This document shows, piece by piece, positions 4,772 to 36,052 of a stretch of 64,000 nucleotides of DNA. The position numbers and the translations under genes were made by a program. The notes beneath the pieces were generated by a model. It saw nothing but the letters and a program-made list of their open reading frames with translations, searched no databases and was not told the DNA's origin. Position 1 is the first letter of the stretch, and each line of letters begins with the position of its first letter. The stretch covers positions 46,721-110,720 of the forward strand of contig CAZCQP010000001.1 in NCBI GenBank assembly GCA_964500895.1, given 5' to 3'. The stretch comes from an uncultured Eubacteriales bacterium. Its GTDB lineage: Bacteria > Bacillota > Clostridia > Lachnospirales > JAISER01.

Positions 4772-4779
4772 AGACCTAT

Positions 4780-12225: not shown

Positions 12226-12244
12226 ACATTATCTGGAGGTTCAC

Positions 12245-12388: not shown

Positions 12389-12393
12389 GCGCC

Positions 12394-12870
12394 ATGGCCC
12401 TTTGCAAAGAAGATTATGTGGCCCGTATTGCACAAGCCAGCGGGGTTCAGCTGACCATCATCACCTATGAGCTGGCCATCCATTATATTGAAGAAGCTAA
12501 AGCGCTGGCCAGTCATCCAGGTGAAAAGGAAGCCTATGGGCAGGCCGTGAACAAAGCCCGTGCCGCCGTTGAAAGCTTGATGGATACGTTAGACATGGCC
12601 GTAACATTCAGCCGTGAACTGATGCCCCTGTACATTTACATCAACAAACGGCTGGCAGAAGTTTATTTTAATCAGAACATGGCCTTGCTGGACGAAGCCC
12701 AAACACTGCTGCAAACCCTTTTAGAAGGCTGGCAGGAAGTGGAAAAAAGCCAGGCAGATGCGGCCCCCCTCATGGATAGTGCCCAGCAACTGTATGCCGG
12801 GCTTACTTACAAAAACGGCCGCTTGCAGGAGTATATTCAGGAAGACGACAGCAGAGGATTTCAAGCATAA
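12394..12870 (+). CDS. fliS: flagellar export chaperone FliS
   Basis: Four-helix FliS pattern (LTIITYELAIHYIEEA.., A..ESLMDTLD.., LMPLYIYINKRLAEVYF, LLEGWQE). ATG at 12394 behind AAGGAG. Confidence 0.75.
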   Translation: MALCKEDYVARIAQASGVQLTIITYELAIHYIEEAKALASHPGEKEAYGQAVNKARAAVESLMDTLDMAVTFSRELMPLYIYINKRLAEVYFNQNMALLDEAQTLLQTLLEGWQEVEKSQADAAPLMDSAQQLYAGLTYKNGRLQEYIQEDDSRGFQA

Positions 12871-12889
12871 TTTCTACCAACATAACAAC

Positions 12890-12935
12890 AAAAGCCATAA
12901 TCACCAGCAAGTGGGCGTGATTATGGCTTTTTTAT
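12890..12935 (+). terminator. intrinsic terminator after fliS
   Basis: AAAAGCCATAATCAC-loop-GTGATTATGGCTTTTTT. Confidence 0.85.
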
Positions 12936-12938
12936 TGC

Positions 12939-13024
12939 TTTACAATTTTTTTACATTTGCGCCCTGTATATTTTACATGCATTTTACATAAACCCACCCT
13001 TATATTTTACATTGGCCCTTTACA
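12939..13024 (+). promoter_or_regulatory. Pho-box array (six TTTACA direct repeats, about 11-bp phasing)
   Basis: TTTACA at 12939, 12950, 12972, 12983, 13006 and 13019, giving spacings of 11, 22, 11, 23 and 13. This matches the Bacillus PhoP TT(A/T/C)ACA direct-repeat logic. It lies immediately upstream of pstS, and phoPR is in the same cluster. Confidence 0.75.
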
Positions 13025-13069
13025 ATAACTTTGTATTAAACATTGTTTTAAATTTAAGGAGAGATAATC

Positions 13070-13993
13070 ATGAAAAAAATGTTAAGGTTGTTACTTGCAA
13101 CTGCTTGCCTGGCCGGGCTTTTTGCCGGATGCCAAGGTAAAACCGATACCCCTGCACAACCCAGCGCTAGCCCAGATGCACAAGAACAACCCACCGAGGC
13201 CCCTGCTGCAAAAGACACCATCATTTCTGTGGTTTCCCGTGAAGACGGCAGCGGCACAAGAGGCGCTTTCATTGAACTGTTTGGCGTTGAAGTGAAAAAC
13301 GAAGACGGCACCAAAAAAGACATGACCACCAAAGAAGCCATCATTGCCAAAGCCACAGACGTGATGATGACCAACGTAGCAAGCGATGAAGATGCCATTG
13401 GCTACATTTCTTTAGGTTCTGTAAACGACACCATCAAACCGTTAAACATCGATGGCGTGGCTGCTACCCCTGAAAACGTAAAAAGCGGTACATACAAAGT
13501 GTCCCGTCCTTTCGTTATCGCAACCAAAGGTGAAGCCGATGGCTTAACCAAAGACTTTATCGACTTTATCCTTTCCGAAGAAGGCCAGGCGGTTGTGTCT
13601 AAAAGCTACATTGCTGTTGTAGAAGGCGCACCTGCTTACAACGGCACCAAACCTAGCGGCAAAATTGTTGTGGCCGGTTCTTCCTCTGTTACACCCATTA
13701 TGGAAAAATTGAAAGAAGCTTATGAAGCAGTAAACACCAATGCCTCCATTGAAATTCAACAATCCGACAGCTCCACCGGTATGACCGCTGCCATCGACGG
13801 CACCTGCGACATCGGCATGTCCTCCAGAGCGCTGAAAGACAGCGAAAAAGAACAACTTTTAGACACCCAAATTGCCCTGGACGGCATTGCAGTGATTGTT
13901 AACAACAACAACCCTATTAGTAACTTAACCAGTGAACAAGTGAAAAATATTTATACAGGAGAGGTAACCAGATGGAACGAAGTGCAAGAATAA
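13070..13993 (+). CDS. pstS: phosphate ABC transporter substrate-binding lipoprotein PstS
   Basis: Lipobox LFAGC. Contains SREDGSGTRGAF and GSSSV motifs. First gene of pstSCAB. Confidence 0.92.
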   Translation: MKKMLRLLLATACLAGLFAGCQGKTDTPAQPSASPDAQEQPTEAPAAKDTIISVVSREDGSGTRGAFIELFGVEVKNEDGTKKDMTTKEAIIAKATDVMMTNVASDEDAIGYISLGSVNDTIKPLNIDGVAATPENVKSGTYKVSRPFVIATKGEADGLTKDFIDFILSEEGQAVVSKSYIAVVEGAPAYNGTKPSGKIVVAGSSSVTPIMEKLKEAYEAVNTNASIEIQQSDSSTGMTAAIDGTCDIGMSSRALKDSEKEQLLDTQIALDGIAVIVNNNNPISNLTSEQVKNIYTGEVTRWNEVQE

Positions 13994-17748: not shown

Positions 17749-19313
17749 AAAAACGCATTTTTGTAGACATGGCGGTGGTGATTTTCCTCACCGCTTTTTT
17801 GTTCACTGCCTTGTCTGGTATATTTTTTCATAATCAATTCGGCGTTCAAATGAAGGAAGGGCTTAAAACTTTACGGGTCACCATCATTGATGAAACAGGG
17901 GCTGTGGGCTTTGACAACTACCGGACAGACCTGGAAAACCACAACAACCGGCCGGAAGTGATTGCGGCCCGTGAACATGGGGTTGGGGAAAGCCAGCGTT
18001 ATTCAGACACATTAGGCGAAAACACCACCTACTATGCCATGAAAATGCCCAATGATTCCATTTTGCGGCTGGCATTCACCACCAGCAGCATAACAGGCTG
18101 GTTGTATGGCTTTTTGCCCTATGTGGTGTTAAGCCTGGCGCTGGTGCTTACCATTTCCTTGTTGCTGGCCAAACGGCTGGCCCACCAACTGCTTGCACCC
18201 ATCAACGCCATTGACCTAGACCGCATTGAACTGGCCTATGACGAACTGGCCCCTTTCGCCAGAAAAATAGAAACCCAGCAGCAGGAAATTTCCACCCAAA
18301 TTGCAGCGCTGGAAGACAAAGCCCACACCATTGCCGCCATTACAGACAACATGAAGGAAGGGCTATTGTTTGTAGACAAAGACGGCATCATTCTTTCTTT
18401 TAACAAGCGCATTGAAGAAATTTTTAATGAAAAAGATTTAAGCGGCAAAAACATATTGCATTTAAGCCGGCAAATGGATTTTCTAGACCACGCCAAATTC
18501 GCTTTGTCCGGCACCCATACGGAAATGGTATATAGCCATCTGGCAAAAACTTATGCGGTTTATTTCAGCCCTGCAACGCTGGAAAACGCTGTGAACGGAG
18601 CCATCATTTTGTTTTTAGACATCAGTGATAAACTTATGGCTGAAAAACAGCGGAAGGAGTTTTCCGCCAATGTGTCCCATGAGTTAAAAACCCCATTAAC
18701 CGTTATTTCCGCTTTGTCGGAAATGATTGCCCAGAACATGGCCAAACCGGAAGATGTGCAAAACTTTGCGGAAAAAATCCACGCACAATCCGGCGGGTTG
18801 CTGGCTTTGATAGACGACATCATCCGGCTGTCTGAATTTGATGAAGGCCGGTTGGAAAAATCTTTTGAAGCTTTCGACGTGGCCGCCCTTGCACGGACGG
18901 TAGCCGAAAACCTGACCCCCCTTGCAGCATCTAAAAACGTGGCCGTTTTTGCACCGGAAGGCAACCTGTCTATCAACGCCAACCAACGGATGATCGAGGA
19001 ACTGCTTTTTAACCTGATAGACAACGGCATTAAGTATAATCAAGAAGGGGGCCGGGTGACTGTTTCTATTGAGAAATCCCAAAGCACAGTGACCATAAGG
19101 GTGTCCGATACAGGCATCGGCATAGACCCCAAGCACCACAGCCGTATTTTCGAGCGGTTTTACCGGGTAGACAAATCACGCTCCAAACAAACCGGAGGCA
19201 CGGGGCTGGGCTTGTCCATCGTGAAGCACATTGCAGAATACCACGGGGGGCATGTTGCTATGGAAAGCGAACCAGGCAAAGGCACCGTCATTGCTTGCAC
19301 ATTTCCCGGGTAA
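17745..19313 (+). CDS. phoR: sensor histidine kinase (PhoR-like)
   Basis: TTG start overlaps the phoP stop and sits behind GGAAGGAG. TM segments, a PAS-like region, H-box SHELKTPLT and G-boxes DTGIGI / GTGLGLSIVKH. Confidence 0.88.
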   Translation: MKKRIFVDMAVVIFLTAFLFTALSGIFFHNQFGVQMKEGLKTLRVTIIDETGAVGFDNYRTDLENHNNRPEVIAAREHGVGESQRYSDTLGENTTYYAMKMPNDSILRLAFTTSSITGWLYGFLPYVVLSLALVLTISLLLAKRLAHQLLAPINAIDLDRIELAYDELAPFARKIETQQQEISTQIAALEDKAHTIAAITDNMKEGLLFVDKDGIILSFNKRIEEIFNEKDLSGKNILHLSRQMDFLDHAKFALSGTHTEMVYSHLAKTYAVYFSPATLENAVNGAIILFLDISDKLMAEKQRKEFSANVSHELKTPLTVISALSEMIAQNMAKPEDVQNFAEKIHAQSGGLLALIDDIIRLSEFDEGRLEKSFEAFDVAALARTVAENLTPLAASKNVAVFAPEGNLSINANQRMIEELLFNLIDNGIKYNQEGGRVTVSIEKSQSTVTIRVSDTGIGIDPKHHSRIFERFYRVDKSRSKQTGGTGLGLSIVKHIAEYHGGHVAMESEPGKGTVIACTFPG

Positions 19314-19334
19314 TAAGATAAGGGGGAATACCAC

Positions 19335-19913
19335 ATGACAGAAATGATGAAAATGCTGGCAGGAGAACTTTACGACTGCGGGGATGCAGAACTGATGGCC
19401 ATTTGGAACAAGGCCAAAAACTTGATGCGCCAGTACAACCAGCTGGACTATTCAGACGTTCAAGGCCAGGCGGCCATTTTGGCAGAGCTTCTAGGTGAAA
19501 AAGGGGCAAACACCCAAATCACCGCCCCGTTTTTTGTGGATTACGGGAAGTTTATCCGCCTGGGCAACAACTGTGAAGTGAACATGAACTGCGTATTTTT
19601 AGACTGTAACTGGATTACCATTGGGGACAACGCCCTCATTGCCCCCGGGGTGCATATTTACACGGTGTTTCACCCTGTAAGTGCCAAAGATCGGATGAAC
19701 CCCAACCCCAAAGGCAACTTTCCCTTTGCCGTGTCTAAAACCGCCCCTGTGACCATTGGAGACAACGTATGGATTGGGGGCGGCAGCATCATTATGCCGG
19801 GGGTAACCATCGGCAACAACGTCACCATTGGGGCAGGCAGTGTGGTCACCAAGTCTTTGCCGGACAATGTGCTGGCTTATGGTAACCCCTGCCGGGTGAT
19901 TAAAAGCATTTAA
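19335..19913 (+). CDS. maa: maltose/galactoside O-acetyltransferase (left-handed beta-helix)
   Basis: N-terminal Mac domain (MLAGELYD...) followed by hexapeptide repeats (IGDNVWIGGGSIIMPGVTIGNNVTIGAGSVV). Confidence 0.85.
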   Translation: MTEMMKMLAGELYDCGDAELMAIWNKAKNLMRQYNQLDYSDVQGQAAILAELLGEKGANTQITAPFFVDYGKFIRLGNNCEVNMNCVFLDCNWITIGDNALIAPGVHIYTVFHPVSAKDRMNPNPKGNFPFAVSKTAPVTIGDNVWIGGGSIIMPGVTIGNNVTIGAGSVVTKSLPDNVLAYGNPCRVIKSI

Positions 19914-21328
19914 ATCCTGTTTTGCGCCGAAGCATAAATGGCTTCCAGTTCCTTGAACTTCTCAGGCGCTAAGGCATATACCGGGGGCGCTTCATACAGC
20001 CTCCGGGCTTCCTTTTTGGCCTCCTCCAGCATGAAATCTTGCCCGGAGGGGCTTTTTTTGTTGCCCCGGTTGAAATAAGGGGAATAGTCCAGATATGCAC
20101 GGTAATTGTCTAGTGTGTTTTCAGACAGCAGAAAGCCGGAATCCAAGCACTGGGCCGCTTCCTCTGCAAAACCTTCCAAAAATTCCAGCACCGGCGCTTC
20201 CAAAAGCCCTTCCACTTGCTTCAAACGCAAGCAGTCTAAGATTAATTCCACCGGGGAAAACACCTCGTCTACAGACAATGTACCGATGCAGTAAAACAAA
20301 GTGGCCCCGGTGAAAGCCCCGGCCGTCATGATGCTCACTTTTTCCAACGCAGACTGGGCATCGCTTGCCCCCGCCGCCGTATGGATGTTGATGCTATGTA
20401 TGTTGGGTGGCGTGCCTAGAAGCTGGGCGGTGAAATCCTCTGCCAGCCGCTCGTACACAAACTTTTGGGGCGTTCCAAAGGCATACTGCATGGCCTGCAA
20501 ATCAAAGGGGTTTATGTTGGGTTTTAGGTAGCAAGGCAGCCCGGTAAGCTTATGCATCAAAAGCCCCGCCCCCAGCACTTCTGCCAAGCACAAAGCCAAA
20601 CTGCCAGACACAGACAAAGGTGCTGTGCTGCCTAAAGCAGGCATGGCAAAGACATAAAAGTCCTCCAGCTTGTCTTTAAAACGCCAGACCATTTCTGCTG
20701 ATTCCCCAGCCAGGCACAAAGGGGTGATGGTATACACCGGCAGCCGCTTGATGGGCTGGTTCATGACTTGTGCCATTTCAAACATGTACTGGGCAGAAAG
20801 CAGAGAGGTTGGCTCTATGGGAATGGTACCCGGGGCGTGCTGGGCGCTTATTTTATATTTAAGCAGAGAATCCAGCGCCGGGTCTACATCTGCCGGGGTG
20901 CCAGGGGCAAAAGGGGCAAAACGGCTAGAGAAGGCTTCCGCTACCTTTGCACAAAACTGGGTGTCCTGGATAAGGGCATCCGTATCAAAGGGAGACACTT
21001 CTTCTGTGAAAGGGTCTAACCGCCGCAATGCATAGGAACACTGCACCCCACGCAGCTTTTGAGCAGACAGCTTAGCTTCCGTTTCTTTTATAAGCAACCC
21101 ATTATTCTGCCGCAAAACTTCCAAAAAGCTGTGGCTTTCCCCTTTAGGAATAACCGCCCTACCCTTGGCGGAAAAAGAGACCCCGGCTTTTTTTAATGCA
21201 TCGGCCATGTCCGGGTTGGGCACTGCAATGCCCACCGTTTCAAGCAAGTCAAAGGCCGCCAGTGTGATTTCTTCCACTTTTGCTTTAGAGATATAGTCTG
21301 TGGTTTGAAGCTTTCTGATGGGTGCCAT
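19910..21328 (-). CDS. MttB-superfamily (trimethylamine methyltransferase-like) protein, no in-frame amber codon
   Basis: 472 aa. The N-terminal pattern KVEEITLAAFDLLETVGIAVPNPDMADALKKAGVSF.. resembles the second MttB-like gene at 34616..36052. The size fits the family. Last gene of the frl-like operon. Confidence 0.65.
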   Translation of the reverse strand: MAPIRKLQTTDYISKAKVEEITLAAFDLLETVGIAVPNPDMADALKKAGVSFSAKGRAVIPKGESHSFLEVLRQNNGLLIKETEAKLSAQKLRGVQCSYALRRLDPFTEEVSPFDTDALIQDTQFCAKVAEAFSSRFAPFAPGTPADVDPALDSLLKYKISAQHAPGTIPIEPTSLLSAQYMFEMAQVMNQPIKRLPVYTITPLCLAGESAEMVWRFKDKLEDFYVFAMPALGSTAPLSVSGSLALCLAEVLGAGLLMHKLTGLPCYLKPNINPFDLQAMQYAFGTPQKFVYERLAEDFTAQLLGTPPNIHSINIHTAAGASDAQSALEKVSIMTAGAFTGATLFYCIGTLSVDEVFSPVELILDCLRLKQVEGLLEAPVLEFLEGFAEEAAQCLDSGFLLSENTLDNYRAYLDYSPYFNRGNKKSPSGQDFMLEEAKKEARRLYEAPPVYALAPEKFKELEAIYASAQNRI

Positions 21329-21348
21329 GGAAGCTGTCCTTTCTGTTA

Positions 21349-22380
21349 TTAATAATTGCCCACAATTTTGGTTAAATAACGGAAGTTATCCACATCCAGC
21401 CCTTGCATCCGTGCCAGCCGTTCTGTTAAAAGCTGAGAGGGCAAAATGGCCGAAATATGGGTAAACACATCTTCACCAGGGGTAAATACAGGCAGAAAAC
21501 GTTCTTCAGCAATGGTTGCAGGCTTATCCGTGGAAACAAAAGTGATGTCGCAACCTGTTTTTTGCAGGAAATCAATGTGTTTAAGGGTTTCGCCCCTGTT
21601 TTGGTCGCAGGGGGCATGGTACAGCACTTGAAGCCCCTTTTCAATAACCTCCACCGCCCCGTGCCGAAATTCGGAGGCCGTCATGCCTTCCGCCATAATC
21701 AGGTTTTTCTCTTTCAGCAAAAGGGCGCTGGCTCTGGCGCTGGCCCCGTTAATGTTATCTGCCAGCACAACCATGGCTTTTTCTTTCAACAAAATGTTGG
21801 CCACCGCTTCAATTTTACTTTGGCAGGCCAAAAGGGTTTGCTCCACACAAGCGGGAATGCGGGCCAGATGAGTCATGGCGGCTTCGGAATCTGCGGCGGC
21901 CACTAAATACAGCAGCATCACGGTAGCCGTATAGGTTTTGGTGGCAGAGCTTACTTCCTTCCCTGCCCCCATCAACAAGGTTTTGGTGGCCATGGTGGCC
22001 AGAGTGGAGCCTTCTTCATTGGTAAGGCCCCAGAAAGGCAAGCCACGTTCGGCCATTAAATGGCACATTTGCTTGGTTTCAAAGCTTTCCCCGGATTGGG
22101 AAATGAGCACCACGGCACTTTTTTCATTAAACAAATGGGTGTAGTAGCCAATTTCACTGGCAGGCAAAACCACAGGCACACGCCCGGCATATTTGGCAAA
22201 AGCCGTCACACAAGCCAGCGCACCGTTTAAGGAGCCGCCTGTGCCTACAATGAAAATGTTTTCTTTAGACAACACATCTTTTTTAAAACCACTGTAGTCC
22301 TGGGCGTTTTGCACCAGCCCCGCCAATACGTCCGGTTGTTCCCAGATATTTTGAAGCATTCCGCTTTTCATTTGAATCAT
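21349..22380 (-). CDS. tandem-SIS domain protein (FrlB/GlmS-isomerase/AgaS-like deglycase or isomerase)
   Basis: 343 aa with two SIS modules (IFIVGTGGSLNGAL..LISQSGES and VVLADNINGASARASALLLKE). 4-nt overlap with the upstream permease gene. Confidence 0.8.
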   Translation of the reverse strand: MIQMKSGMLQNIWEQPDVLAGLVQNAQDYSGFKKDVLSKENIFIVGTGGSLNGALACVTAFAKYAGRVPVVLPASEIGYYTHLFNEKSAVVLISQSGESFETKQMCHLMAERGLPFWGLTNEEGSTLATMATKTLLMGAGKEVSSATKTYTATVMLLYLVAAADSEAAMTHLARIPACVEQTLLACQSKIEAVANILLKEKAMVVLADNINGASARASALLLKEKNLIMAEGMTASEFRHGAVEVIEKGLQVLYHAPCDQNRGETLKHIDFLQKTGCDITFVSTDKPATIAEERFLPVFTPGEDVFTHISAILPSQLLTERLARMQGLDVDNFRYLTKIVGNY

Positions 22381-23225
22381 CCTTTCACGGCTCCGGCCAC
22401 CAGGCCTTCGGCCAATCTTCTTTGGAAAATAATATACAAAATGATGGAAGGTATCATCACCATGTTCAGCCCGGCGAACAACGTTACCCAGTCCGCTTTT
22501 AATTTAAAGGTGGCCATCAGGCCAATAAGCCCCACCGGCAACGTCCGTTTGGCTGGCTCGTTCACAAAGGTAAGGGCAAAAATGTAGTCGTTCCATATCC
22601 AGATTAAGTTAAAAATAACGGTGGTCATCACCCCGTTTCTAGACAGGGGGAACACAATTTGCCAAAACTTGCGGTTGAAGGAACAGCCGTCGATGGTGGC
22701 GGCTTCTTCAATTTCCTTGGGTAACGCCCGGTAAAAGCCGTTCAGCACCAAGATGGAGTATGGCAGGCTGAAAACGGTGTACAAAAGGACCAGCGTTACC
22801 CGGCTGTTTAACAGGTTCAGGCTATTGAGCAGCAAAAATTCCGATGGCAAAATAAGCGCTGTGGGCACATACAGCCCGGAGAGAAAGATGAATAGAATCA
22901 GCCCGTTTACCCGCAAGTTAATGCGCACCAAAATGTAGGAAACAGTAGAGGCCAGCACCGTGGCTAACCCCACAGCAGACAATGTAACCAATACGCTGTT
23001 CATCATGTATGTACTGAATTTCACCTTTTGCCAGGCGTTTACAAAGTTTTGGAACGCCAGCCCTTGCCCCAGCGCCCAAGGGTCTGCCACAAATTCGGCG
23101 TTGGTTTTAAAGGAGGTCATTACAATCCAAAAAATGGGCAAGATGATGAGCAAGGCATACACATACAGCAGCCCTTTGATGCAAAAATCCATGGGTTTTA
23201 GCCCGTTTAAGCTTGATTTTCCCAT
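22377..23225 (-). CDS. carbohydrate ABC transporter permease (MalG-like)
   Basis: 282-aa polytopic protein with EAA loop EAATIDGCSFNRKFWQIVFP. Confidence 0.88.
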   Translation of the reverse strand: MGKSSLNGLKPMDFCIKGLLYVYALLIILPIFWIVMTSFKTNAEFVADPWALGQGLAFQNFVNAWQKVKFSTYMMNSVLVTLSAVGLATVLASTVSYILVRINLRVNGLILFIFLSGLYVPTALILPSEFLLLNSLNLLNSRVTLVLLYTVFSLPYSILVLNGFYRALPKEIEEAATIDGCSFNRKFWQIVFPLSRNGVMTTVIFNLIWIWNDYIFALTFVNEPAKRTLPVGLIGLMATFKLKADWVTLFAGLNMVMIPSIILYIIFQRRLAEGLVAGAVKG

Positions 23226-24136
23226 TATGCATCCCCCTTTGGCTTGGTCAGGTTCAACACTAGAAACACGGTGACGGCGGTTAAAGCAAATAGCACAATG
23301 CCAATGGCAGAGGAATAACCGTAGTCATAGTCCACAAAAGCCGTTTTGTACAGGTATGTGGTTAAAAGTTCGCTGGCCCGGTCTGGGCCGCCTTTGGTCA
23401 TCACATATACCAGCTCGAAAGAGTAATTAAAAGCCGTGATAACGAAAAAGGCCAGTGCCGTGCGGATGTTTTCCCATATGGAAGGAATGGTAATGAAAAA
23501 AAACTTTTGGTAGCCGTTGGCCCCGTCTACATCTGAAGACTCGTAAATGTCCCCGGAAATGTTGGACATGGCGGCTAAAAATAAAATCATGTAAAAGCCA
23601 ATGTTTATCCACACCATGGGCACCGTAATGGCCCCCATAATCACATTTTTATCCCCCAGCCATATTCGGGTTAAATGGTGCAAGTTCAAGCTTTCTAAAA
23701 TGGTGTTAAACACCCCGAAGGACGGATTGTACAAGAAGTTCCATAAAATAGCAACAATGGTAACCGATAGCACATGGGGTACAAAAAATAATATTCTAAA
23801 AAAAGTGTTTTCCTTGTATTTTTTCTGCACAAAAATGTTGGCAAATATAATAGAGAGGGTGAATGTAATGAGGGTACACCAGAACAGCAAAAACAAATTA
23901 TTTTTAAGCGCCGCCCAAACAATAGGGTCTGCAAAAAGCCGCTTGAAATTATCCAGCTTGATAAACGTGCCCGAGTTGGTATAAATGGACCACTCAAAAA
24001 AACTCATGTAAAAGGATTTTAAATAGGGGTACACGCAAAACAGCAAAAACAAGCCCAGCGTGGGCACCAGATACACCAAAGCAAACAGCTTTTCCTGTAT
24101 GTCATGCTTTTTAAGCTGTGCAGACAGTCTCTCCAT
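23225..24136 (-). CDS. carbohydrate ABC transporter permease (MalF-like)
   Basis: Start trimmed to MERLSAQL.. behind AAAGGAGGAAAAC. Contains the loop ESSDVDGANGYQKFFFITIP. Confidence 0.88.
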   Translation of the reverse strand: MERLSAQLKKHDIQEKLFALVYLVPTLGLFLLFCVYPYLKSFYMSFFEWSIYTNSGTFIKLDNFKRLFADPIVWAALKNNLFLLFWCTLITFTLSIIFANIFVQKKYKENTFFRILFFVPHVLSVTIVAILWNFLYNPSFGVFNTILESLNLHHLTRIWLGDKNVIMGAITVPMVWINIGFYMILFLAAMSNISGDIYESSDVDGANGYQKFFFITIPSIWENIRTALAFFVITAFNYSFELVYVMTKGGPDRASELLTTYLYKTAFVDYDYGYSSAIGIVLFALTAVTVFLVLNLTKPKGDA

Positions 24137-25238
24137 GTTTTCCTCCTTTTGCCGCCAAATAGCTGCAAAGCTGCTCCCGGGTGGGGCTATGGCCCTTCTC
24201 CACATAAAAACTGCCCACGGCCCCGGCCACTGCCAACACTTCCGTCATGTTCAAGCCCCCACGCAGCCCCAGCAAAAGCCCGGCGTTGTAGTTGTCGCCA
24301 CCGCCTGTTGAAATGACTGGGTGTTCTACAAAAAAACCTTCATGGGTGTACGTATTGCCTTCCACCCATGCCACAGAGCCAGACACCGGATGGATAACCA
24401 CCCCTTGCACACCCAGTTTCTGGGCAATGGCTTCCGCCAACCGGGGCAAGTCTTCTTCCTCGGTGGCAATGTTCAGAAATTGCCGCAAAAGAACGGCTTC
24501 GTTTTGGTTTAAGCTTACCACCACTCGGCGGTACAGGGCGTAGTCTTTTAAAATATCCCCCATCGCCTGCACGTGTTCGGCATTGTGCCGGGAACAGTCT
24601 GTAATGTCTACCAATACCAGCTTGTTAAAATCCGAGCCGGCTGGTTTCACCGCCAGTTCCAAAACTCCTTGCCAAATGTTGTTGGAATAGGTCATTTCGC
24701 TCCAGTTCACCAGCCCCACCGTAGCAGCTTGTCCAAACAAGGCTTGTAGTTTTACTTCGCCCAAGGCTTGCACCACAGCTTCAAATTCCAAATCTGCCGC
24801 ATCGCCCATCTGGGCCAACATCACTTTGCCGTCCATAAACTCTAGCGCCGTGCATTTGCCATGGTCCGCCACGGAATGGAGACGGCAGTTTTCCATTCCG
24901 CTAAAGACGGGAGACACCTCCGGGTAGCCCATGGTGCCCACACAATCCACCACCATGCCTAAGCGGCCAAGGGCGGCAGACAAGTTCACCATGTTGCCCC
25001 CCGGCTTGGCCATGATGTTGGCCAGCTCTACCAAGCAACTTAAATGGCTTTTCCCGGCCACAAAGCGGCCGAACTCTCCGATGGTTTTAAAATAATCTTT
25101 TTCCATGTCCGGGCCCACGGCTTCAACTGGGCGAACCAGTTCGTCCACCACTGCGTCAAAGCCGATGCAGGCCCCGTCTTCTATCAATTCCGGTAAGGAC
25201 TGTATTTTCTGAATAATCACATCAATATCCGGCTTCAT
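24111..25238 (-). CDS. PfkB/ribokinase-family sugar kinase
   Basis: 375 aa. KPGGNMVNLSAALGRLG (sugar lid) and the C-terminal anion-hole motif STGGGDNYNAGLLLG. Confidence 0.75.
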   Translation of the reverse strand: MKPDIDVIIQKIQSLPELIEDGACIGFDAVVDELVRPVEAVGPDMEKDYFKTIGEFGRFVAGKSHLSCLVELANIMAKPGGNMVNLSAALGRLGMVVDCVGTMGYPEVSPVFSGMENCRLHSVADHGKCTALEFMDGKVMLAQMGDAADLEFEAVVQALGEVKLQALFGQAATVGLVNWSEMTYSNNIWQGVLELAVKPAGSDFNKLVLVDITDCSRHNAEHVQAMGDILKDYALYRRVVVSLNQNEAVLLRQFLNIATEEEDLPRLAEAIAQKLGVQGVVIHPVSGSVAWVEGNTYTHEGFFVEHPVISTGGGDNYNAGLLLGLRGGLNMTEVLAVAGAVGSFYVEKGHSPTREQLCSYLAAKGGKHGETVCTA

Positions 25239-26427
25239 ATTCTATTCCTTTATCCATATTTTGCGGCTTCCATAATAAATAGGCCATTTCCGCCGCACCC
25301 AGAAGCACGGTGCTTTGGCTGTCCTCGTCGTAGCATATGTCCACCGGACTTGCACCCCGCACCACCCGCCGGGCTTCGTTCACTTCCTGCACCACCGGCA
25401 GCATGTGTTCAAAAAGCACTTGGGGAATGCCCCCAACAACGATGGTTTCAGGGTCAAACAAGTTCACCAGCAAAGACACGAGCTCACCCAATACGGCGCC
25501 ATTGTCTTTGGCCACCGCCACTGCTTTTTCATCGTTGGCTGCCAATTTTTCCATGAACATTTCCCATCCGGCCATATCGCCCGCAGGAAATGCCCGCCCA
25601 ATAAATTTTTCTGAGAAGCCGTATAAAGATAAATCTGTTTGCACGCACCGGGGGCAACCACAAATGCGGCAATTTTTGCTTAGCTTACCCAAGGGAATGT
25701 GGCATATTTCAGAACCGTAACCGTTTCGGCCCAGCACTTGCCGGCCGCCGGACAAAATGCCCACGCCAACCCCTTCGCTTAAATAAATGTAAATTATATC
25801 TTTTTTGTGGCTTACATTGGTTGTAGCCATGACGCACAAGTTGGATTCATTTTCTATATGCACAGGCACGTTCAGCGCCTGGCTGAGCATGGTTTTAATG
25901 GGCTGGCATTCAAACAAATCCAGTTCCGATGCCACAATGGTTTCTGTGTGGATGTCGTAAATGCCGGAAACAGCCACGCTCATGCCCACCACTTTTTGCC
26001 GCATGCGCTCTGCAAAACCATACTCATACTGGTTTTTGGTGCATTGGATAAGCTGCTCCAATGTCATTTGGGGGCCATAGGTAAAATCTATTTGGTGCAC
26101 TTGCTCTAAAAATAGGTTATACAGCGCCAGCCGTACCTTTCCAATGCGGTGGAAATCTGCCACAGCCAAATACCGGGCCTGTTTGTTCAGAGACAACACT
26201 TTCGGCAGCCGCCCCACAGCCACGGCATGGGTTTCCTCCAGCCCCGTCTCCAGCACAATGCCCTTTTCCAACAGCTGGTTACACATGGTAGACACCGTGG
26301 CGAAACTAAGCCCCAAATGGCTGGCAATGTCTTTCTTGGTGGCAGGGCTGTTGGTGCGTAAATACCCTACAATACGTTTTAAATTATAATTTTTAATTTC
26401 AACAACACTTTGAATAGCTGGGGACAT
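25222..26427 (-). CDS. ROK-family transcriptional regulator
   Basis: N-terminal wHTH (NLKRIVGYLRTNSPATKKDIASHLGLSFATVSTMCNQLLEKG) plus a ROK sugar-kinase-like body with a Cys motif (CRICGCPRC). Start trimmed to MSPAIQ. Confidence 0.85.
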   Translation of the reverse strand: MSPAIQSVVEIKNYNLKRIVGYLRTNSPATKKDIASHLGLSFATVSTMCNQLLEKGIVLETGLEETHAVAVGRLPKVLSLNKQARYLAVADFHRIGKVRLALYNLFLEQVHQIDFTYGPQMTLEQLIQCTKNQYEYGFAERMRQKVVGMSVAVSGIYDIHTETIVASELDLFECQPIKTMLSQALNVPVHIENESNLCVMATTNVSHKKDIIYIYLSEGVGVGILSGGRQVLGRNGYGSEICHIPLGKLSKNCRICGCPRCVQTDLSLYGFSEKFIGRAFPAGDMAGWEMFMEKLAANDEKAVAVAKDNGAVLGELVSLLVNLFDPETIVVGGIPQVLFEHMLPVVQEVNEARRVVRGASPVDICYDEDSQSTVLLGAAEMAYLLWKPQNMDKGIEYEAGY

Positions 26428-26540
26428 AAGACACCTTACTTTCTTTTTGGTTAATGATTCAAAAAGTGTGTGTTTAGAGAAATGCCGAAGATATGGCATT
26501 TCTCTAAACTTTATCCGTCTTATCGGCAGCCCATGATGTA

Positions 26541-27860
26541 TTATTCTACTACTGCTAATGCATCTAACCGTTCACAAAAGGCTTTTGCATCAATTTCCCC
26601 TACAGAAAGGGCATTCACCGCATTGGTGATTTCTGCAAACAGCTTTTTGTTGGTCAGCCGGTAGCTGGCCACAGATGATACAGCGTTTTGCTGAAGCGCC
26701 AGTGTGGCCTGCACACTGCCCGGAAGCATGGCCTTCATTTCCTCACTCACATTTTGGAAAGCCATCAGCGCCCCAGTTTCCTCCAGGCATTTTGCTGCAT
26801 TTTCCTGTGAATAGAAGTATTGTAGCAGTTCTGCCACATAAGGCAAGTTTGCATCGGTTGCCTGTTTAGGTAAAATCATCACTTCAATAATGGGCGTGAA
26901 CACTGGCTTGCCGTCTTCGGTGGGCACGGCAAAAGGCATCAGTTCAAAACCTTCGGGCCATTGGTCGCCCATTTCACCTTCCAGCCAGGTTCCAACAGGA
27001 ATGAACGCCGCTTTATGGTTGATAAATTCAATTTGAGACTGAATGTGGTCCATAGCGATAGAGTTAGGGGTTACATACCCAGCGTCCACCAGCTTTTGCC
27101 ATTCTTCAACAGCCGCAACCACAGAAGGGTTCATCCATGCGCCTTTTTCCCCTTTGTTCAAAGCTTCTGCCGCAGCCGGGTCTTTGGACACAATCAGCGG
27201 GTAAATGAAGCTGTCATGCACCATAAAGGCATAGGCGCCGCCATAGACCATGGGGGTAACCCCTTCACTATGTAATTGGGCACAGGCTGCTTTGAAGCCA
27301 TCCATGGTAGCCAATGCGGCAGGATCTATGCCTTGTGCGGCTAGAAAGGCGTTGTCGTAAAAATTGGCGGCCACATATTGGGTTAAGGGCAGCAGGTAGT
27401 GGCTGCCTTCCCAGTTGCCTAAATCCAGACCGGCTTGCAGCAGCCTGTCTTTTAAGGTTTCGTCTCCCTCGGCGGTGTTCATGGCCAGCACGTCATCCAC
27501 CGGGTTTAACATGCCGTCTTTATACATGCCGTAAAGGTCTACATCGGAAGCCCAGGAAAAGAAAATATCCGGCGCATTTTTTGAAGCCATCAGGTTGTTG
27601 ATTTCACTGTATGCTTCCGGTGAAATGTTTAAATTGATGGTAATGTCCGGGTATTTTTCTTGCATCTTCGCCACAGCATAATCCATAAACGGCTCGGTCA
27701 CTTCTTGTTGCCACAAAATATCAATGACAATATCTTTGCCTGTGCCTGCTCCTTCACCGCTGCTGTTTGCGGGGGCAGCTGGTTCGGCTGCGCTTTTTCC
27801 ACAAGCAGCCAATGTAAGGGTGAGTGCGCCGACCAAAATCAAGCTTATCCATTTTTTCAT
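26541..27860 (-). CDS. ABC transporter extracellular sugar-binding lipoprotein
   Basis: Lipobox LTLAACG. 439-aa family-1 SBP-like protein. First gene of the operon. Confidence 0.85.
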   Translation of the reverse strand: MKKWISLILVGALTLTLAACGKSAAEPAAPANSSGEGAGTGKDIVIDILWQQEVTEPFMDYAVAKMQEKYPDITINLNISPEAYSEINNLMASKNAPDIFFSWASDVDLYGMYKDGMLNPVDDVLAMNTAEGDETLKDRLLQAGLDLGNWEGSHYLLPLTQYVAANFYDNAFLAAQGIDPAALATMDGFKAACAQLHSEGVTPMVYGGAYAFMVHDSFIYPLIVSKDPAAAEALNKGEKGAWMNPSVVAAVEEWQKLVDAGYVTPNSIAMDHIQSQIEFINHKAAFIPVGTWLEGEMGDQWPEGFELMPFAVPTEDGKPVFTPIIEVMILPKQATDANLPYVAELLQYFYSQENAAKCLEETGALMAFQNVSEEMKAMLPGSVQATLALQQNAVSSVASYRLTNKKLFAEITNAVNALSVGEIDAKAFCERLDALAVVE

Positions 27861-27905
27861 TGCATGACCTCTCTTCTGTAAATAGTTTAAGTAATTTTAA
27901 CCATT

Positions 27906-27934
27906 ATTATAATACTTAAAATAATATATAACAA
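27906..27934 (-). promoter_or_regulatory. sigma-A type promoter of the frl-like operon, with overlapping inverted repeat
   Basis: Minus-strand read: TTGTTA, 17 nt spacer, TATAAT. The 8-bp inverted repeat TTTAAGTA (27886..27893) / TACTTAAA (27913..27920) brackets the -10 and is a candidate operator. Confidence 0.45.
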
Positions 27935-27997
27935 TATACAAAAGCTTAAAAAAACATATTGGAATCTTGTGTATCTTGTATATTTATCTACTAATCC

Positions 27998-28678
27998 TTA
28001 GCTTTTCTTTGTAATAAAGGGATCCAGCCTACCAGCCAGAGACATGGCCGTCATGGTTTGCAAATACACTTTCCCCGGGCCTGTTAATGTGGTAAGAAAC
28101 AGCCCTTCCCCTCCGAAAATCATATTGGTGAAACCTTTCACCATTTCAGCGGAATAACTGACCGAAGCTTCATAAATAGCCACATGAGCTGTATCCACTT
28201 TCAACTTTTGGCCCGGTGCTAAATCCATTTCCATAATGCTGCCGTCCAGCTCCAAAAACACCAACCCGCTACCTTTCACCCTTTGCAGTAAGAAACCTTC
28301 CCCGCCGAACAAACCGCCTTTTAAACCCTTCACCACTTCTATGGAAAGCTCCACCGTAGGTTGGGCACATAAAAACGCACTCTTTTGGCATATGTATTGT
28401 TTGCCGTCGGATAAGTCTAAGGGAATGATGTGCCCGGGAAAGGAAGAAGCAAACGTGATGTATTGGCCATTGGCTTCAGCGGTGTAGGTGGCCATAAACA
28501 AAGAGTCGCCAGTTAGCATACGCCCCAGCCCTTTTGCCAGGCCCCCTTTCATATTGGTGGACATTTGAATGCCTTCTGTCATCCAGCTCATGCCGCCGGA
28601 CTGGGTATAGATGCTTTCCCCCTGGTTCAGTTCTATGGTTACTGCGGGTAAATTGTTGCCAAATACCTTGTACTGCAT
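27998..28678 (-). CDS. TIGR00266/AIM24-family protein
   Basis: 226 aa. MQYKVFGNNLPAVTIELNQGESIYTQSGGMSWM.. and repeated GGEGF(L)LQ/GGEGLFLT motifs. Confidence 0.75.
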   Translation of the reverse strand: MQYKVFGNNLPAVTIELNQGESIYTQSGGMSWMTEGIQMSTNMKGGLAKGLGRMLTGDSLFMATYTAEANGQYITFASSFPGHIIPLDLSDGKQYICQKSAFLCAQPTVELSIEVVKGLKGGLFGGEGFLLQRVKGSGLVFLELDGSIMEMDLAPGQKLKVDTAHVAIYEASVSYSAEMVKGFTNMIFGGEGLFLTTLTGPGKVYLQTMTAMSLAGRLDPFITKKS

Positions 28679-28772
28679 GAACTTACCTCCTTTTTGAAAT
28701 AATAATATATTATTTATATTTTAGTCATTATATCATATTAATGCAACATATGGCAAAATTACATTTTTTGTG

Positions 28773-28801
28773 TTGCATGTTTTTAAAAGTTGTGATACAA
28801 T
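28773..28801 (+). promoter_or_regulatory. sigma-A type promoter for secG-rnr
   Basis: TTGCAT, 17 nt spacer, TACAAT, with TGa (extended -10). Confidence 0.55.
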
Positions 28802-34615: not shown

Positions 34616-36052
34616 TTATTCCATTTCCTGTTTGGCTTGTTCAATTAACTGTTGCACAGCTTTTGCAACAGCCGGGTCTTCTTCCGCAACCTGGTCCTTT
34701 TCAATCAGGCGCAATGCTTCTGCATTGGCTTTTTCCTCCAAAGATTTTTCACCGGAAGCCACCCAGTCTGCCCAAACACTGTCAAAGCCCACTTGGGTTG
34801 TAAAAATTTCTCCAGCTTGCAAATATTCCACCGTGTGGGGCTGTTCCAAAAAGCTTTCGTGCCCTTCAACCACGGCTTCTATGGCTTCAAAACCAAGCAC
34901 ATCGTCGGTGACCTCAATGGCCCGTTGCGCTTTTTTAATCATGTTTAGCATTTCGTTGTCGATAACCAGCTGCCCCAAGGAAGCGCACATCACACTGCCC
35001 AAGCTGCCGTAGCCGGTAATCATGGTGGCCCCGGCCAAAGCGGGCAACAAAGCATTAAGCATTTTCTCATAGCCGGTTTGTTCGTCCATGGTGCAGCTGG
35101 TGCAAGCCAGGCCGTATACGTCGGACATAAACCCGCAGTGGGTGGCCAGTTGGACGGCAATGGCGCTGGAAATGCCCGTTTCCGGCAAGCCTAAAATACT
35201 TTGGCCTGTTTTCATGTTGGCAAAGAAGGTACGTGCCCCGTAAAAAAGCACTGTTTTAGGGTTAATGAGGTACGCCAGCACTGCGAAAGATAAAATTTCT
35301 GCATGGGCCTGGGCCACACAGCCCGCCACAGTAACCGGGGCAGTTAATCCCCCCATAGGCGCAGACAGTATGCTCACTGGAATGCCAGCTTGAACAATGA
35401 TTTGCAGTGTGTCTGTAATTTCTTTGGGCAAAAACAAAGGAGATTCTGGAGAAATGCCCACTAAACCGATGGGATTTTCCGCCAGTTGAGGGCCGCCGTA
35501 AATTTGAAACAATTCTGCTATGTATTTGGCGTTGATGGCGGTGGATATGCCGGGGCCATAGATGGGTTTCTTGGAATAACGCAACATGGTAACAGCCTGC
35601 ATAAACTGGCTAATTGGGGAGGCTACATCACTGGGATACACCAATGCGCAGGGCAGATTCAGTGCATCTAAATGGTTCATCACACGCACGCTGTCTACTA
35701 AGTCCGACAACAAACCATTTCGGCGTTGGCCGGTTTTAGGGTCTAAAACCCATGGCGCACCCCCGGTGCTGTGAGACATGGCTTGCCCGGCTTCCATAGA
35801 CAGGGTGAGTTTTGCCCCTGTAGGAGAAGCCATGGTGACGGTTTTTTTGGCGTTCTTTACCGCTGCCTCAATAAGCTGGGGGCAATATTTCACCCGTTCA
35901 CCTGTAACCACACACCCGTTCTTTTCAAGCAATGTACGCATTTCCGGGTCTTCAATACGCACACCAAACGTGGTAAGCATTTTCACACCGGCTTGGTGAA
36001 GTTTCTCCAGTTTTTGCACTTCCATAGGTATTAACGATGCACTTGCTGCCAT
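34616..36052 (-). CDS. MttB-superfamily methyltransferase (non-pyrrolysine type)
   Basis: 478 aa. EKLHQAGVKMLTTFGVRIEDPEMRTLLEKNGCVVTGERVKY.. and the overall length are typical of the trimethylamine/glycine-betaine methyltransferase family. The ORF is uninterrupted. Confidence 0.8.
   Translation of the reverse strand: MAASASLIPMEVQKLEKLHQAGVKMLTTFGVRIEDPEMRTLLEKNGCVVTGERVKYCPQLIEAAVKNAKKTVTMASPTGAKLTLSMEAGQAMSHSTGGAPWVLDPKTGQRRNGLLSDLVDSVRVMNHLDALNLPCALVYPSDVASPISQFMQAVTMLRYSKKPIYGPGISTAINAKYIAELFQIYGGPQLAENPIGLVGISPESPLFLPKEITDTLQIIVQAGIPVSILSAPMGGLTAPVTVAGCVAQAHAEILSFAVLAYLINPKTVLFYGARTFFANMKTGQSILGLPETGISSAIAVQLATHCGFMSDVYGLACTSCTMDEQTGYEKMLNALLPALAGATMITGYGSLGSVMCASLGQLVIDNEMLNMIKKAQRAIEVTDDVLGFEAIEAVVEGHESFLEQPHTVEYLQAGEIFTTQVGFDSVWADWVASGEKSLEEKANAEALRLIEKDQVAEEDPAVAKAVQQLIEQAKQEME

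Follow-up and report, generated by a model that had tools for sequence, protein, structure and literature searches.

The conserved MttB-like gene that closes a seven-gene sugar operon points to an undescribed step in sugar catabolism, probably one that acts on a methylated amino sugar. Its product falls within a large branch of the MttB superfamily that is unstudied and located in carbohydrate gene clusters of many bacterial phyla, and it is the founding member here of this sugar-operon-linked clade. The operon lies in a 64-kb window, the term used here for the whole stretch of DNA that was analysed.

Operon anatomy and conserved linkage

ORF coordinates and Pfam/NCBIfam scans place seven packed genes on the minus strand between 19910 and 27860, in the order given by the original prediction (binding protein, ROK regulator, kinase, two permeases, SIS protein and MttB-like protein):

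27906 to 27934, minus strand: promoter-like site, TTGTTA-17 nt-TATAAT, matching 10 of 12 consensus positions, upstream of the binding-protein gene
26541 to 27860, minus strand: lipoprotein-type solute-binding protein of a CUT1 sugar ABC importer, NgcE-like (Pfam SBP_bac_8, SBP_bac_1)
25222 to 26499, minus strand: ROK-family transcription regulator with an N-terminal winged HTH, NagC/Mlc-like (PF00480, 103.5 bits; HTH_24)
24111 to 25238, minus strand: Khk-family sugar kinase of the PfkB superfamily (PF25270, 155 bits)
23225 to 24136, minus strand: ABC permease 1, MalF/UgpA-like (PF00528; corrected start at 24136)
22377 to 23225, minus strand: ABC permease 2, MalG/UgpE-like (PF00528, 60.9 bits)
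21349 to 22380, minus strand: tandem-SIS protein of GlmS-isomerase/NagB-II type (GlmS and NagB-II models, PDB matches)
19910 to 21328, minus strand: divergent non-pyrrolysine MttB-superfamily protein of 472 aa (PF06253, 67.6 bits; AlphaFold model)

The four overlaps described at the outset were recovered, measuring 17 nt between the ROK and kinase genes, 26 nt between the kinase and permease genes, 1 nt between the two permeases and 4 nt between the permease and SIS genes. For permease 1, the longest ORF extends to 24205, while the start is placed at Met24 of that ORF, at 24136, based on alignment with homologues at 68-75% identity and an AGGAGG site. The spacing of the SIS and MttB-like genes is likewise as predicted, a 20-nt gap in which the stop codon TAA is followed by TAACAGAAAGGACAGCTTCC and then ATG, with AAAGGA as the ribosome-binding site. 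A consensus scan of this gap, which the original prediction had named as a place where the MttB-like gene might be split from the SIS gene, found no promoter or terminator match. Upstream of the binding-protein gene, the best promoter-like site is that at 27934-27906, a call made by consensus match alone and the second-best match of the scan over 19200-28800. Pfam/NCBIfam scans found no ABC ATPase in the seven-gene operon, in agreement with the earlier description of an importer without a dedicated ATPase.

The SIS protein, whose tandem-SIS architecture is homologous to the C-terminal domain of GlmS, matches the GlmS subfamily model NF001484 with 163.6 bits over residues 8-340 and the NagB-II model with 82.8 bits, both below the equivalog cut-offs. 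Among PDB structures, it scores 88.7 bits against the GlmS isomerase domain, 57.7 against NagB-II, and 26-29 against the FrlB-type structures 3eua, 2a3n, and 8glr. The kinase matches PF25270, a family which we take to be based on haloarchaeal ketohexokinases, over its full length with 155 bits against a cut-off of 35, while the fructoselysine 6-kinase (FrlD) model NF007321 gives 25 bits against a cut-off of 247. With the SIS protein nearer to GlmS and NagB-II than to FrlB and the kinase far below the FrlD cut-off, a fructosamine or FrlB-type operon is not supported. The binding protein scores 156.8 bits against TIGR03851 (chitin_NgcE), below the cut-off of 399, and its PDB matches include the chitin-oligosaccharide binding protein NagB2, while the ROK regulator reaches 81.9 bits with the NagC model and 69.9 bits with the Mlc model, both below cut-off.

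The kinase, an aminosugar-phosphate deaminase and the MttB-like gene are kept together in loci whose MttB-like proteins are 39-48% identical. Three of these (L002, L003, L074) share the order ROK, binding protein, Khk, permease, permease, SIS, MttB, which recurs in L087 with a more divergent MttB-like gene. In two others (L075, L077), Khk and MttB are kept, and a NagB-I deaminase (PF01182) stands where the SIS protein was. With its place taken by a non-orthologous enzyme of this kind, the SIS step can be identified as deamination of an aminosugar phosphate, and the SIS protein would accordingly be classed as a putative aminosugar-6-phosphate deaminase/isomerase. In L076, the MttB-like gene accompanies a PfkB kinase and a transporter with a TOBE_2 ATPase and an SBP_bac_1/11/8/6 binding protein. 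Of 80 metagenomic loci with relatives of the kinase, 34 have a NagB-I-type deaminase next to it, a pairing that argues for a substrate other than a ketohexose phosphorylated at C1; judged from these neighbours, the kinase substrate is probably not free fructose.

The amino-sugar reading draws on the NgcE-like binding protein, the NagC-like regulator, the pairing of kinase and NagB-I, the NagK-like kinases of a sister clade, and the transporter and kinase of L076. Given the non-Frl character of the SIS protein and kinase and the replacement by NagB-I, the pathway therefore looks amino-sugar (Nag-like) rather than an frl orthologue. The label of a fructosamine-type operon with a SIS deglycase, which the original prediction had attached, is likewise not supported, in view of the same scores, the NagB-I replacement in two close operons, and the NagB-I neighbours of the kinase relatives.

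The recurrence of the linkage in independent loci and in L087 marks the MttB-like gene as a conserved operon part, and the juxtaposition is therefore not fortuitous. That an unrelated MttB-family gene came by chance to occupy the last position of a sugar operon is extremely improbable and is already contradicted by the neighbourhood survey. Chance would suit the missing URO-D partner in the window operon and the rarity of the MttB-like gene among Khk-NagB modules, most of which lack it (present in 3/80), but it fits neither the conserved linkage, nor the approximately 25 more distant members directly adjoining GH4 in sugar clusters, nor the short gap to the SIS gene with its ribosome-binding site and no terminator match.

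The MttB-like protein and its clade

In the Pfam scan, the MttB-like protein scores 67.6 bits against PF06253 (cut-off 25), and the clade profile matches MttB of M. barkeri (7xcm) over its full length with 131.6 bits and an E value of 2.5e-37. An AlphaFold2 model (pLDDT 88, pTM 0.87) has the MttB-type TIM-barrel fold, and its best Foldseek matches in the PDB are MtgB (2qne and 9yce), 4yyc, and MttB (7xcl), with TM scores of 0.70-0.72 and E values of ~1e-17. By sequence profile and predicted structure, the 472-residue protein is thus an MttB-superfamily member, as first proposed, but an outlier at the family edge. It shares 21% identity with MtgB (37 bits), and against TIGR02369, the equivalog model of the true TMA methyltransferase (cut-off 525), it reaches 75 bits, compared with ~300 bits for ordinary members. 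Its ORF is uninterrupted, with no in-frame UAG, and is not of the pyrrolysine type; His316, present in 43 of 52 clade members, aligns with Pyl334 of MttB.

The glycine-betaine site of MtgB consists of Y97, R312, H348, and F356 (PMC13080624). In the alignment, three of these four residues are replaced, R312 by P, H348 by Y346, and F356 by the invariant D354, which is followed by E355. The sole residue retained is the invariant Y99, at or one column off MtgB Y97, and the clade signature comprises Y99, D276, D354, E355, F357, and S358. A pocket lined by Y99, the D354-E355 pair, and His316 would be compatible with a cationic, hydroxyl-rich ligand.

More distant clade members, in Chloroflexota, Armatimonadota, and other phyla, adjoin GH4 glycosidases, NagK-like kinases, and URO-D-like genes, with GH4 directly beside ~25 of them within sugar clusters; the NagK-like kinases are carried by the sister clade. 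The clade is widespread in polysaccharide-degrading phyla, beside GH4, sugar ABC importers, and kinases, and many of its hosts come from phyla with aerobic members. The library searched yielded no paper that describes a sugar-linked MttB. Separately, Pfam detects a second, canonical MttB-family gene in the window at 34616-36052, which the original prediction had overlooked.

Candidate chemistry and methyl-transfer partners

The best explanation, a tentative one at well under even confidence, is a single catabolic operon of seven genes that is under ROK control and serves an imported, modified amino sugar, and in which a methylated amino-sugar phosphate would be demethylated with the help of a corrinoid carrier encoded elsewhere. 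The compound would be imported by the NgcE-like binding protein and the two permeases, with an ATPase supplied in trans, and phosphorylated by the Khk-family kinase. The MttB-like TIM-barrel enzyme would then demethylate the amino group, most plausibly quaternary or tertiary, on the sugar phosphate, thereby taking the place that NagA, which removes the N-substituent, holds in the GlcNAc pathway. The methyl group may pass to the corrinoid carrier and onward through an MtaA-like URO-D enzyme, such as that adjacent in the closest homologous operons, while the GlmS/NagB-II-type SIS enzyme would carry out aldose-ketose deamination to yield a glycolytic ketose-6-phosphate and the residual amine. Gene functions in this scheme follow homology, and we infer the order of the steps, the chemistry of methyl transfer, which substrate is used, and a corrinoid partner in trans.

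URO-D-like genes occur in ~23 clade loci and match MtaA/MtbA/CmuA models, not HemE. In L003 and L074, an MtaA-like URO-D gene lies immediately downstream of the MttB-like gene, and its product carries an HxC motif that aligns with the HxC of the MtaA structure 4ay7, as well as a Cys further along. The L083 locus has a corrinoid protein, a DUF1638 protein, and a URO-D gene on the flanks of its Khk-GH4-NagB-ROK cluster. The MttB fold, the URO-D-like neighbours, the HxC motifs of L003 and L074, and the flank of L083 are all indicators of methyl-transfer machinery.

Counted against demethylation are several absences. A B12-domain HMM, which detects the L083 corrinoid protein at 136 bits, found no B12-binding domain either in the six frames of the 64-kb window or up to 10 kb away from any of the ~70 non-redundant clade loci, and a search for a cobalamin riboswitch found none. 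No URO-D gene was found in the window by Pfam scans of most genes, those in 1-17.7 kb having been identified by eye from translations. The original prediction had likewise placed neither a corrinoid protein nor a second methyltransferase in the window, a part of the earlier interpretation that stands together with MttB membership and the status of a conserved operon gene, whereas its fructosamine/deglycase part does not. The loss of three MtgB site residues, the HxC motif missing from many URO-D-likes of the GH4-linked clade, the few Khk-NagB modules with an MttB-like gene, and the rarity, to our knowledge, of natural N-methylated or quaternary amino sugars also weigh against it. Partners encoded elsewhere do have precedent, since the MttB-family genes, mtqC, and mtqA/ramQ of E. 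limosum lie in separate clusters (PMC8604678) and R. pomeroyi uses a common MtgC/MtgD core (PMC12478193).

Much of the same evidence would suit an MttB fold recruited for chemistry other than methyl transfer, a rather unlikely alternative that was one of the options named in the original prediction. The protein would then be a corrinoid-independent TIM-barrel enzyme acting on a phosphorylated sugar, such as an isomerase, epimerase, lyase, or NagA-like remover of a substituent, and its URO-D-like neighbours would likewise be non-methyltransferase barrels. In its favour are the lack of a corrinoid protein near clade members and of a B12 riboswitch, the remodelled quaternary-amine pocket with D276 and the invariant acidic pair, the position of the clade at the family edge, the many hosts from phyla with aerobic members, and the loss of HxC in the GH4-linked clade. 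It is opposed by the repeated co-occurrence of two families best known for corrinoid methyl transfer (although URO-D includes the haem enzyme HemE), by the HxC...C kept in the URO-D-likes closest to the window operon, and by the corrinoid and DUF1638 proteins beside the same kind of sugar cluster in L083. Moreover, all MttB-superfamily members characterised to date are methyl-ammonium:corrinoid methyltransferases (PMC13080624, PMC8604678).

Two further substrates are each considered improbable. The first, suggested in the original prediction, is a glycated (Amadori/Heyns) or glycosylated methylated amine. The free methylated amine would be released by the SIS deglycase (by GH4 in the case of the sister clade) and then demethylated by the MttB-like protein. 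An enzyme that detaches C1- or C2-substituents from sugars (SIS, NagB-I, or GH4) does stand beside the MttB-like gene in every context, and the architecture of kinase, SIS protein, and importer without its own ATPase is frl-like; yet neither the SIS protein nor the kinase is an Frl orthologue, the NagB-I that stands in for the SIS protein has no deglycase activity known to us, and the residues with which MtgB binds the free amine are not conserved. On standard chemical grounds, furthermore, quaternary amines cannot form Amadori or Heyns adducts, and we know of no non-pyrrolysine MttB that uses the primary or secondary amines that can.

The second is an O-methylated sugar, a methyl ether of the sort found in plant, algal, and bacterial glycans, with the acidic/His pocket serving, in analogy to MtaB, as an acid or Lewis-acid site and the URO-D-like partners assisting. 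URO-D-family methyltransferases perform O-demethylation in anaerobes, D354, E355, and H316 are conserved and could bind a metal, and the clade has the polysaccharide-degrading hosts and neighbours noted above; the library searched yielded no paper in which a corrinoid methyltransferase demethylates a sugar. Against ether cleavage, no MttB-family member is known to us to perform it, the subclade of the window gene is associated specifically with aminosugar deaminases, and no corrinoid protein is nearby.

Beyond the methylated amino-sugar phosphate proposed for this operon, it is possible, if doubtful, that the many-phyla clade and its MtaA-like partners form the first MttB-superfamily lineage to act on carbohydrates, stripping methyl groups from methylated (amino) sugars, with a corrinoid carrier that is shared or not a dedicated corrinoid protein at all. 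If true, natural methylated sugars would include a class of substrates not recognised so far, and sugar-bound methyl groups would have a new route into one-carbon metabolism.

Comparison with known systems

The frl operon of B. subtilis and E. coli shares with the window operon its general architecture, in which a PfkB-superfamily kinase and a tandem-SIS enzyme accompany an importer of one binding protein and two permeases, with no ATPase. It differs in lacking an MttB-like gene and in its regulator, FrlR being of the GntR type, whereas the regulator here is of the ROK family. The GlcNAc/GlcN pathway is matched by the NgcE-like binding protein, the ROK/NagC-like regulator, a sugar kinase, and an aminosugar-6-phosphate deaminase (NagB-II-like SIS here, NagB-I in L075 and L077), although all matches here fall below equivalog cut-offs. 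The kinase here belongs with the PfkB enzymes of PF25270 rather than with the ROK or BadF kinases, and no NagA deacetylase is present, the MttB-like protein occupying that position.

Haloarchaeal ketohexokinases, the biochemically studied prokaryotic enzymes known to us that convert fructose to fructose-1-phosphate (PMC11519228), resemble the kinase here in its full-length PF25270 match. In contrast, this kinase, like its relatives in 34 of 80 loci, is paired with an aminosugar-phosphate deaminase, not with 1-PFK and aldolase.

MtgB, MtpB, MtcB, and MtyB share with the MttB-like protein the Pfam family, the TIM-barrel fold, the absence of an in-frame UAG, and a Tyr near MtgB Y97, and their genes can lie apart from the corrinoid partner, as in E. 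limosum (PMC8604678). The protein described here differs from these MtgB-type enzymes in its low identity, its replaced pocket, and the lack of a corrinoid protein near any clade member, and its gene lies in a carbohydrate operon rather than in a betaine, carnitine, or one-carbon context.

The operon and its terminal MttB-like protein

The analysis shows a catabolic operon of the amino-sugar type, with a remodelled MttB-family barrel as one of its fixed parts. According to ORF coordinates and Pfam and NCBIfam assignments, seven tightly packed genes lie on the minus strand at 19910-27860, which confirms the packing and junctions of the original prediction, a fructosamine-type operon ending in an MttB-like gene; no ABC ATPase is encoded in it.

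Genes of the operon (19910-27860, minus strand)
Solute-binding protein, minus: lipoprotein, SBP_bac_1/8; top specific model NgcE (GlcNAc/chitobiose binder), 157 bits, under cut-off
ROK regulator, minus: winged HTH at the N-terminus, NagC/Mlc-like
Kinase, minus: PfkB superfamily; PF25270 "prokaryotic ketohexokinase", full-length, 155 bits
Two permeases, minus: BPD_transp_1; start of the first corrected to 24136
Tandem-SIS protein, minus: 343 aa
MttB-like protein, 19910-21328, minus: 472 aa; PF06253 (MTTB), 67.6 bits against a cut-off of 25

Genes in the operon overlap by 17 nt, 26 nt (with the permease start moved to 24136), 1 nt and 4 nt, and a 20-nt spacer carrying an AAAGGA RBS leads from the SIS gene to the MttB-like gene. 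A promoter or terminator in this spacer would split the two genes; a consensus scan matched neither there, and placed its top promoter-like site at 27934-27906, upstream of the binding-protein gene. On the plus strand, a maltose/galactoside O-acetyltransferase-like hexapeptide protein (19335-19913) converges on the operon and overlaps the MttB-like stop codon by 4 nt, and no intrinsic terminator was matched between these two genes.

The 472-aa protein is a genuine yet extreme member of the MttB superfamily. The family identity proposed from the sequence is upheld by the PF06253 match and by the MttB fold of an AlphaFold2 model (pLDDT 88, pTM 0.87), whose convincing structural matches are confined to the MttB family (TM 0.70-0.72, 15-18% identity). 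Among 5.8 billion proteins searched, only 13 homologues were found at 29-48% identity, followed by a sharp fall to ordinary MttB proteins at 22-27%. The profile of these 13 aligns from end to end with the MttB of M. barkeri, at 131.6 bits (E 2.5e-37), and reaches 88 bits with the glycine-betaine methyltransferase MtgB. The divergence is evident in the true-MttB equivalog model, which gives 75 bits against about 280-300 for ordinary non-pyrrolysine members, and in pairwise comparison with MtgB (21%, 37 bits, against 26%, 126 bits, for a second MttB protein of the window).

The glycine-betaine site of MtgB has been defined experimentally as Y97, R312, H348 and F356 (PMC13080624), and was transferred to the MttB-like protein through the profile alignment. 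Tyr alone is kept, as Y99, which is invariant in 52 clade members and lies one alignment column off, while R312 is replaced by Pro and H348 by Tyr. The cation-pi residue F356 corresponds to an invariant Asp, D354, which opens the clade signature D354-E355-x-F357-S358, and the pyrrolysine position of MttB to His316 (His in 43 of the 52 members). These replacements indicate a substrate pocket unlike that of every characterised member. A cationic ligand rich in hydroxyl groups would, judged from sequence, fit the invariant Tyr, the His and the new Asp-Glu pair.

Conserved linkage with a kinase and a deaminase

The linkage of the MttB-like gene to the sugar operon is real. Neighbourhood look-ups of homologue loci recovered the order ROK, SBP, Khk (the PF25270 kinase), permease, permease, SIS, MttB in three independent lineages, L002 (44% identity), L003 and L074, and a metagenome scan added L087 as a fourth instance, more divergent than these. 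Directly after the MttB-like gene, L003 and L074 carry a URO-D-family gene, which overlaps it by 4 nt in L074; in the same slot, L002 has a 68-aa ORF without a family match (8449-8655, plus strand). The kinase and MttB-like gene are also kept in L075 (48%) and L077 (39%), where SIS is replaced by a PF01182 protein that matches NagB models at 147-165 bits, galactosamine-6-phosphate isomerase at 133-144 and 6-phosphogluconolactonase at 48-59. The neighbourhood survey suggested with the original prediction thus retains the kinase/deaminase linkage in L002, L003, L074, L075, L077 and L087, and a chance juxtaposition of the MttB-like gene and the sugar operon is extremely improbable. In L076 (312-5026), a 44%-identical homologue is accompanied by an SBP_bac_1/11/8/6 binding protein and a TOBE_2-domain ATPase instead of the CUT1 sugar importer, with an IolC/ribokinase-like PfkB kinase next in order.

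Aminosugar-6-phosphate deaminases are known in two kinds, and the SIS/PF01182 swap is a non-orthologous displacement of one by the other; it gives the strongest clue to the role of the SIS protein. The window protein matches GlmS isomerase domains at 88.7 bits and NagB-II at 57.7. Orthology of the SIS protein to FrlB and of the kinase to FrlD was considered and rejected, at 26-29 bits to FrlB-type deglycase structures and 25 bits to the FrlD model. Of the original interpretation, family membership, operon linkage and novelty of context stand, all of them broader than first seen; its fructosamine deglycase framing does not, as the SIS protein is nearer to GlmS/NagB-II and NagB-I substitutes for it in L075 and L077, and "aminosugar-phosphate deaminase" should replace that label. 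The accompanying model, with the amine released first and then demethylated, is a doubtful one.

The kinase profile retrieved 80 metagenomic loci, many on short contigs: a NagB-I-type gene adjoins the kinase in 34 and a SIS gene in 6, and no more than 3 have an MttB-like gene. By these counts, kinase plus aminosugar-phosphate deaminase is a widespread core, to which the MttB-like gene is a conserved addition in one sub-lineage. The PF25270 "ketohexokinase" relatives at these loci (L078-L157) share 28-45% identity, and the frequency of the kinase/NagB-I two-gene module suggests that many PF25270 members phosphorylate hexosamines (or ketosamines) and not fructose.

The wider clade and candidate methyl-transfer partners

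An HMM search run exhaustively over 1.84 billion representatives returned 468 proteins at E <= 1e-30, the top 150 of which fall off gradually in score, from 678 to 206 bits, so the clade is a large one. At 50% identity it makes up at least 150 clusters, and its members are found in more than 50 species-level genomes, from Chloroflexota, Armatimonadota, Poribacteria, Latescibacterota, Planctomycetota and Bacillota. When each GTDB species was represented by one genome, the clade profile picked out 63 loci, mostly from Anaerolineae/Chloroflexia, Armatimonadota, Hebobacteria, Latescibacterota, Poribacteria, Omnitrophota and Planctomycetota, with few in Clostridia. Neighbouring genes were identified by running HMMs built from the loci against all six-frame ORFs. 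A GH4 glycosidase, MelA-like (PRK15076, 229-327 bits, under cut-off), directly adjoins the MttB-like gene in about 25 non-redundant loci, usually with a CUT1 sugar importer and a BadF/BcrA-type kinase (top model N-acetylglucosamine kinase), and often with a second, more canonical MttB paralogue. L012, L065 and L069 likewise have a SIS gene after the MttB-like gene.

Anaerolineae clusters such as L007 (5208-14597; also L008, L009, L010, L016 and L028) run NagK-like kinase, GH4, clade MttB-like gene, MttB2, GH4, URO-D, URO-D, where MttB2 is canonical-like (280 bits to TIGR02369); the arrangement looks like a duplicated GH4/MttB/URO-D triad behind a sugar ABC importer. In L072, an Oscillospiraceae MAG, an 852-aa ORF (420-2978, plus strand) joins an MttB-like domain lacking about 30 C-terminal residues to a GH4 domain that starts at profile position 49, so that its N-terminal NAD-binding segment is missing; the fusion may be genuine, or two neighbouring genes may have been joined by a deletion or an assembly artefact.

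URO-D-family genes, which are MtaA-like, occur in about 23 clade loci and match MtaA/MtbA/CmuA methyltransferase models weakly (26-61 bits), with no HemE match. The L003 and L074 proteins align an HxC (ILHSCG) with the HxC (VLHICG) of the MtaA structure 4ay7 and have a downstream Cys, giving HxC...C, the zinc-ligand motif of this family; in loci of the GH4 type, most URO-D-like proteins show HSD in its place or lack the motif. O-demethylation of methyl-ether sugars is a further reading of the MttB-like enzyme's role, and an improbable one.

For the corrinoid partner, a B12-binding-domain HMM was built from five PDB corrinoid domains. It matched nothing among six-frame ORFs of the window or of 73 clade loci with 10-kb flanks (best E 0.93), and it detects a real corrinoid protein, in L083, at 136 bits. 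A regex match in L012 was rejected as a corrinoid protein, as it sits inside a URO-D-like protein. No cobalamin riboswitch was picked up when the window and six loci were scanned with Rfam, a tRNA being the sole match. Neither a B12-binding domain (six-frame HMM) nor a URO-D match (Pfam for most genes, translations read by eye for the first 17.7 kb) was found in the window, in line with the earlier statement that it holds no corrinoid protein or second methyltransferase. Corrinoid-independent, non-methyl chemistry on a sugar phosphate is possible but unlikely. In E. limosum, separate clusters hold the substrate-specific genes of the MttB family, mtqC, and mtqA/ramQ (PMC8604678), and R. pomeroyi uses a shared MtgC/MtgD core (PMC12478193), so a missing adjacent corrinoid gene is not decisive.

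L083, retrieved by the kinase search and without an MttB-like gene, is the only locus with a B12-binding protein among about 150. On one side of its Khk-GH4/NagB-I/ROK cluster (259-13188) lie a 215-aa corrinoid protein (Pfam PF02310 and PF02607), a DUF1638 protein and an AraC regulator, and on the other a URO-D gene (195 bits). As a single locus, this is no more than suggestive of an association between corrinoid protein and sugar cluster. DUF1638 has been tied genetically to a B12-dependent split methionine synthase (PMC5764234); the mlp-cluster paper mentions neither sugars nor DUF1638.

The second MttB gene of the window (34616-36052, minus strand) is far more canonical (PF06253 240 bits, TIGR02369 298 bits, 26% to MtgB) and, having no in-frame stop, is a non-pyrrolysine member. 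It stands alone beside a GH18-LysM-SLH wall protein (36169-38502), with no corrinoid or MT2 gene near, and the presence of at least two such "orphan" MttB genes suggests that shared partners are encoded elsewhere in the genome.

Additionally, at 44941-45740 (plus) and 60347-61303 (minus), a small protein with a long His-rich tract (HAHAHGHGHHHHHHHH) at its end lies beside a DUF3842 protein, with a CobW/COG0523-type G3E GTPase further on; these genes may serve metal handling. Read by eye, the first 17.7 kb encodes Isc proteins, a Spo0A-like regulator (2279-3055; 153 bits, below the equivalog cut-off of 200), flagellins, an MCP and Pst/Pho genes, and it is only the regulator and SLH proteins that suggest a spore-forming member of the Bacillota. 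Eight window proteins, including the housekeeping proteins Der GTPase, RNase R and SecDF, are singleton 90%-identity clusters in a collection of 15 billion proteins, and the genome is absent from the GTDB representatives matched by the clade profile. The source appears to be a poorly sampled Bacillota-like lineage.

Proposed mechanism and comparison with known systems

The mechanism we tentatively prefer, as a possible rather than a probable one, is that the MttB-like enzyme would demethylate a methylated amino group on a phosphorylated sugar. Demethylation would precede the deaminase, as a quaternary ammonium sugar would be barred from GlmS/NagB enamine/imine chemistry until one methyl is gone, and this would provide a chemical rationale for coupling MttB to a deaminase. 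The proposed role also fits the known reaction of non-pyrrolysine MttB enzymes, which is just this removal of one methyl from a quaternary amine. A search for literature on sugar-linked MttB proteins, including fructoselysine, GH4 and methylated-sugar demethylation, found nothing relevant.

Characterised non-pyrrolysine MttB enzymes matter for gut trimethylamine balance and methylotrophy. The interest here is a large, cross-phylum, mis-annotated clade: the substrate range of the family possibly reaches carbohydrates, or alternatively its fold has gained new corrinoid-independent chemistry. Either outcome would point to a step not yet described in how modified sugars are broken down and change the reading of thousands of metagenome genes annotated "trimethylamine methyltransferase", which at present often serve as evidence of methylamine use. 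The conserved core, made up of binding protein, kinase, MttB-like enzyme and deaminase, plus the MtaA-like partner in some loci, is compact and open to direct testing.

Characterised non-pyrrolysine MttB enzymes in the cited papers take as substrates small quaternary amines in free form (betaines, carnitine, gamma-butyrobetaine and choline), and the present proteins are a distinct clade, firmly built into clusters of sugar importer, kinase, deaminase and GH4 genes. The likeness of the window operon to the frl operon is one of architecture only, the two not being orthologous, and, set against the GlcNAc pathway, the MttB-like protein is placed where NagA sits.
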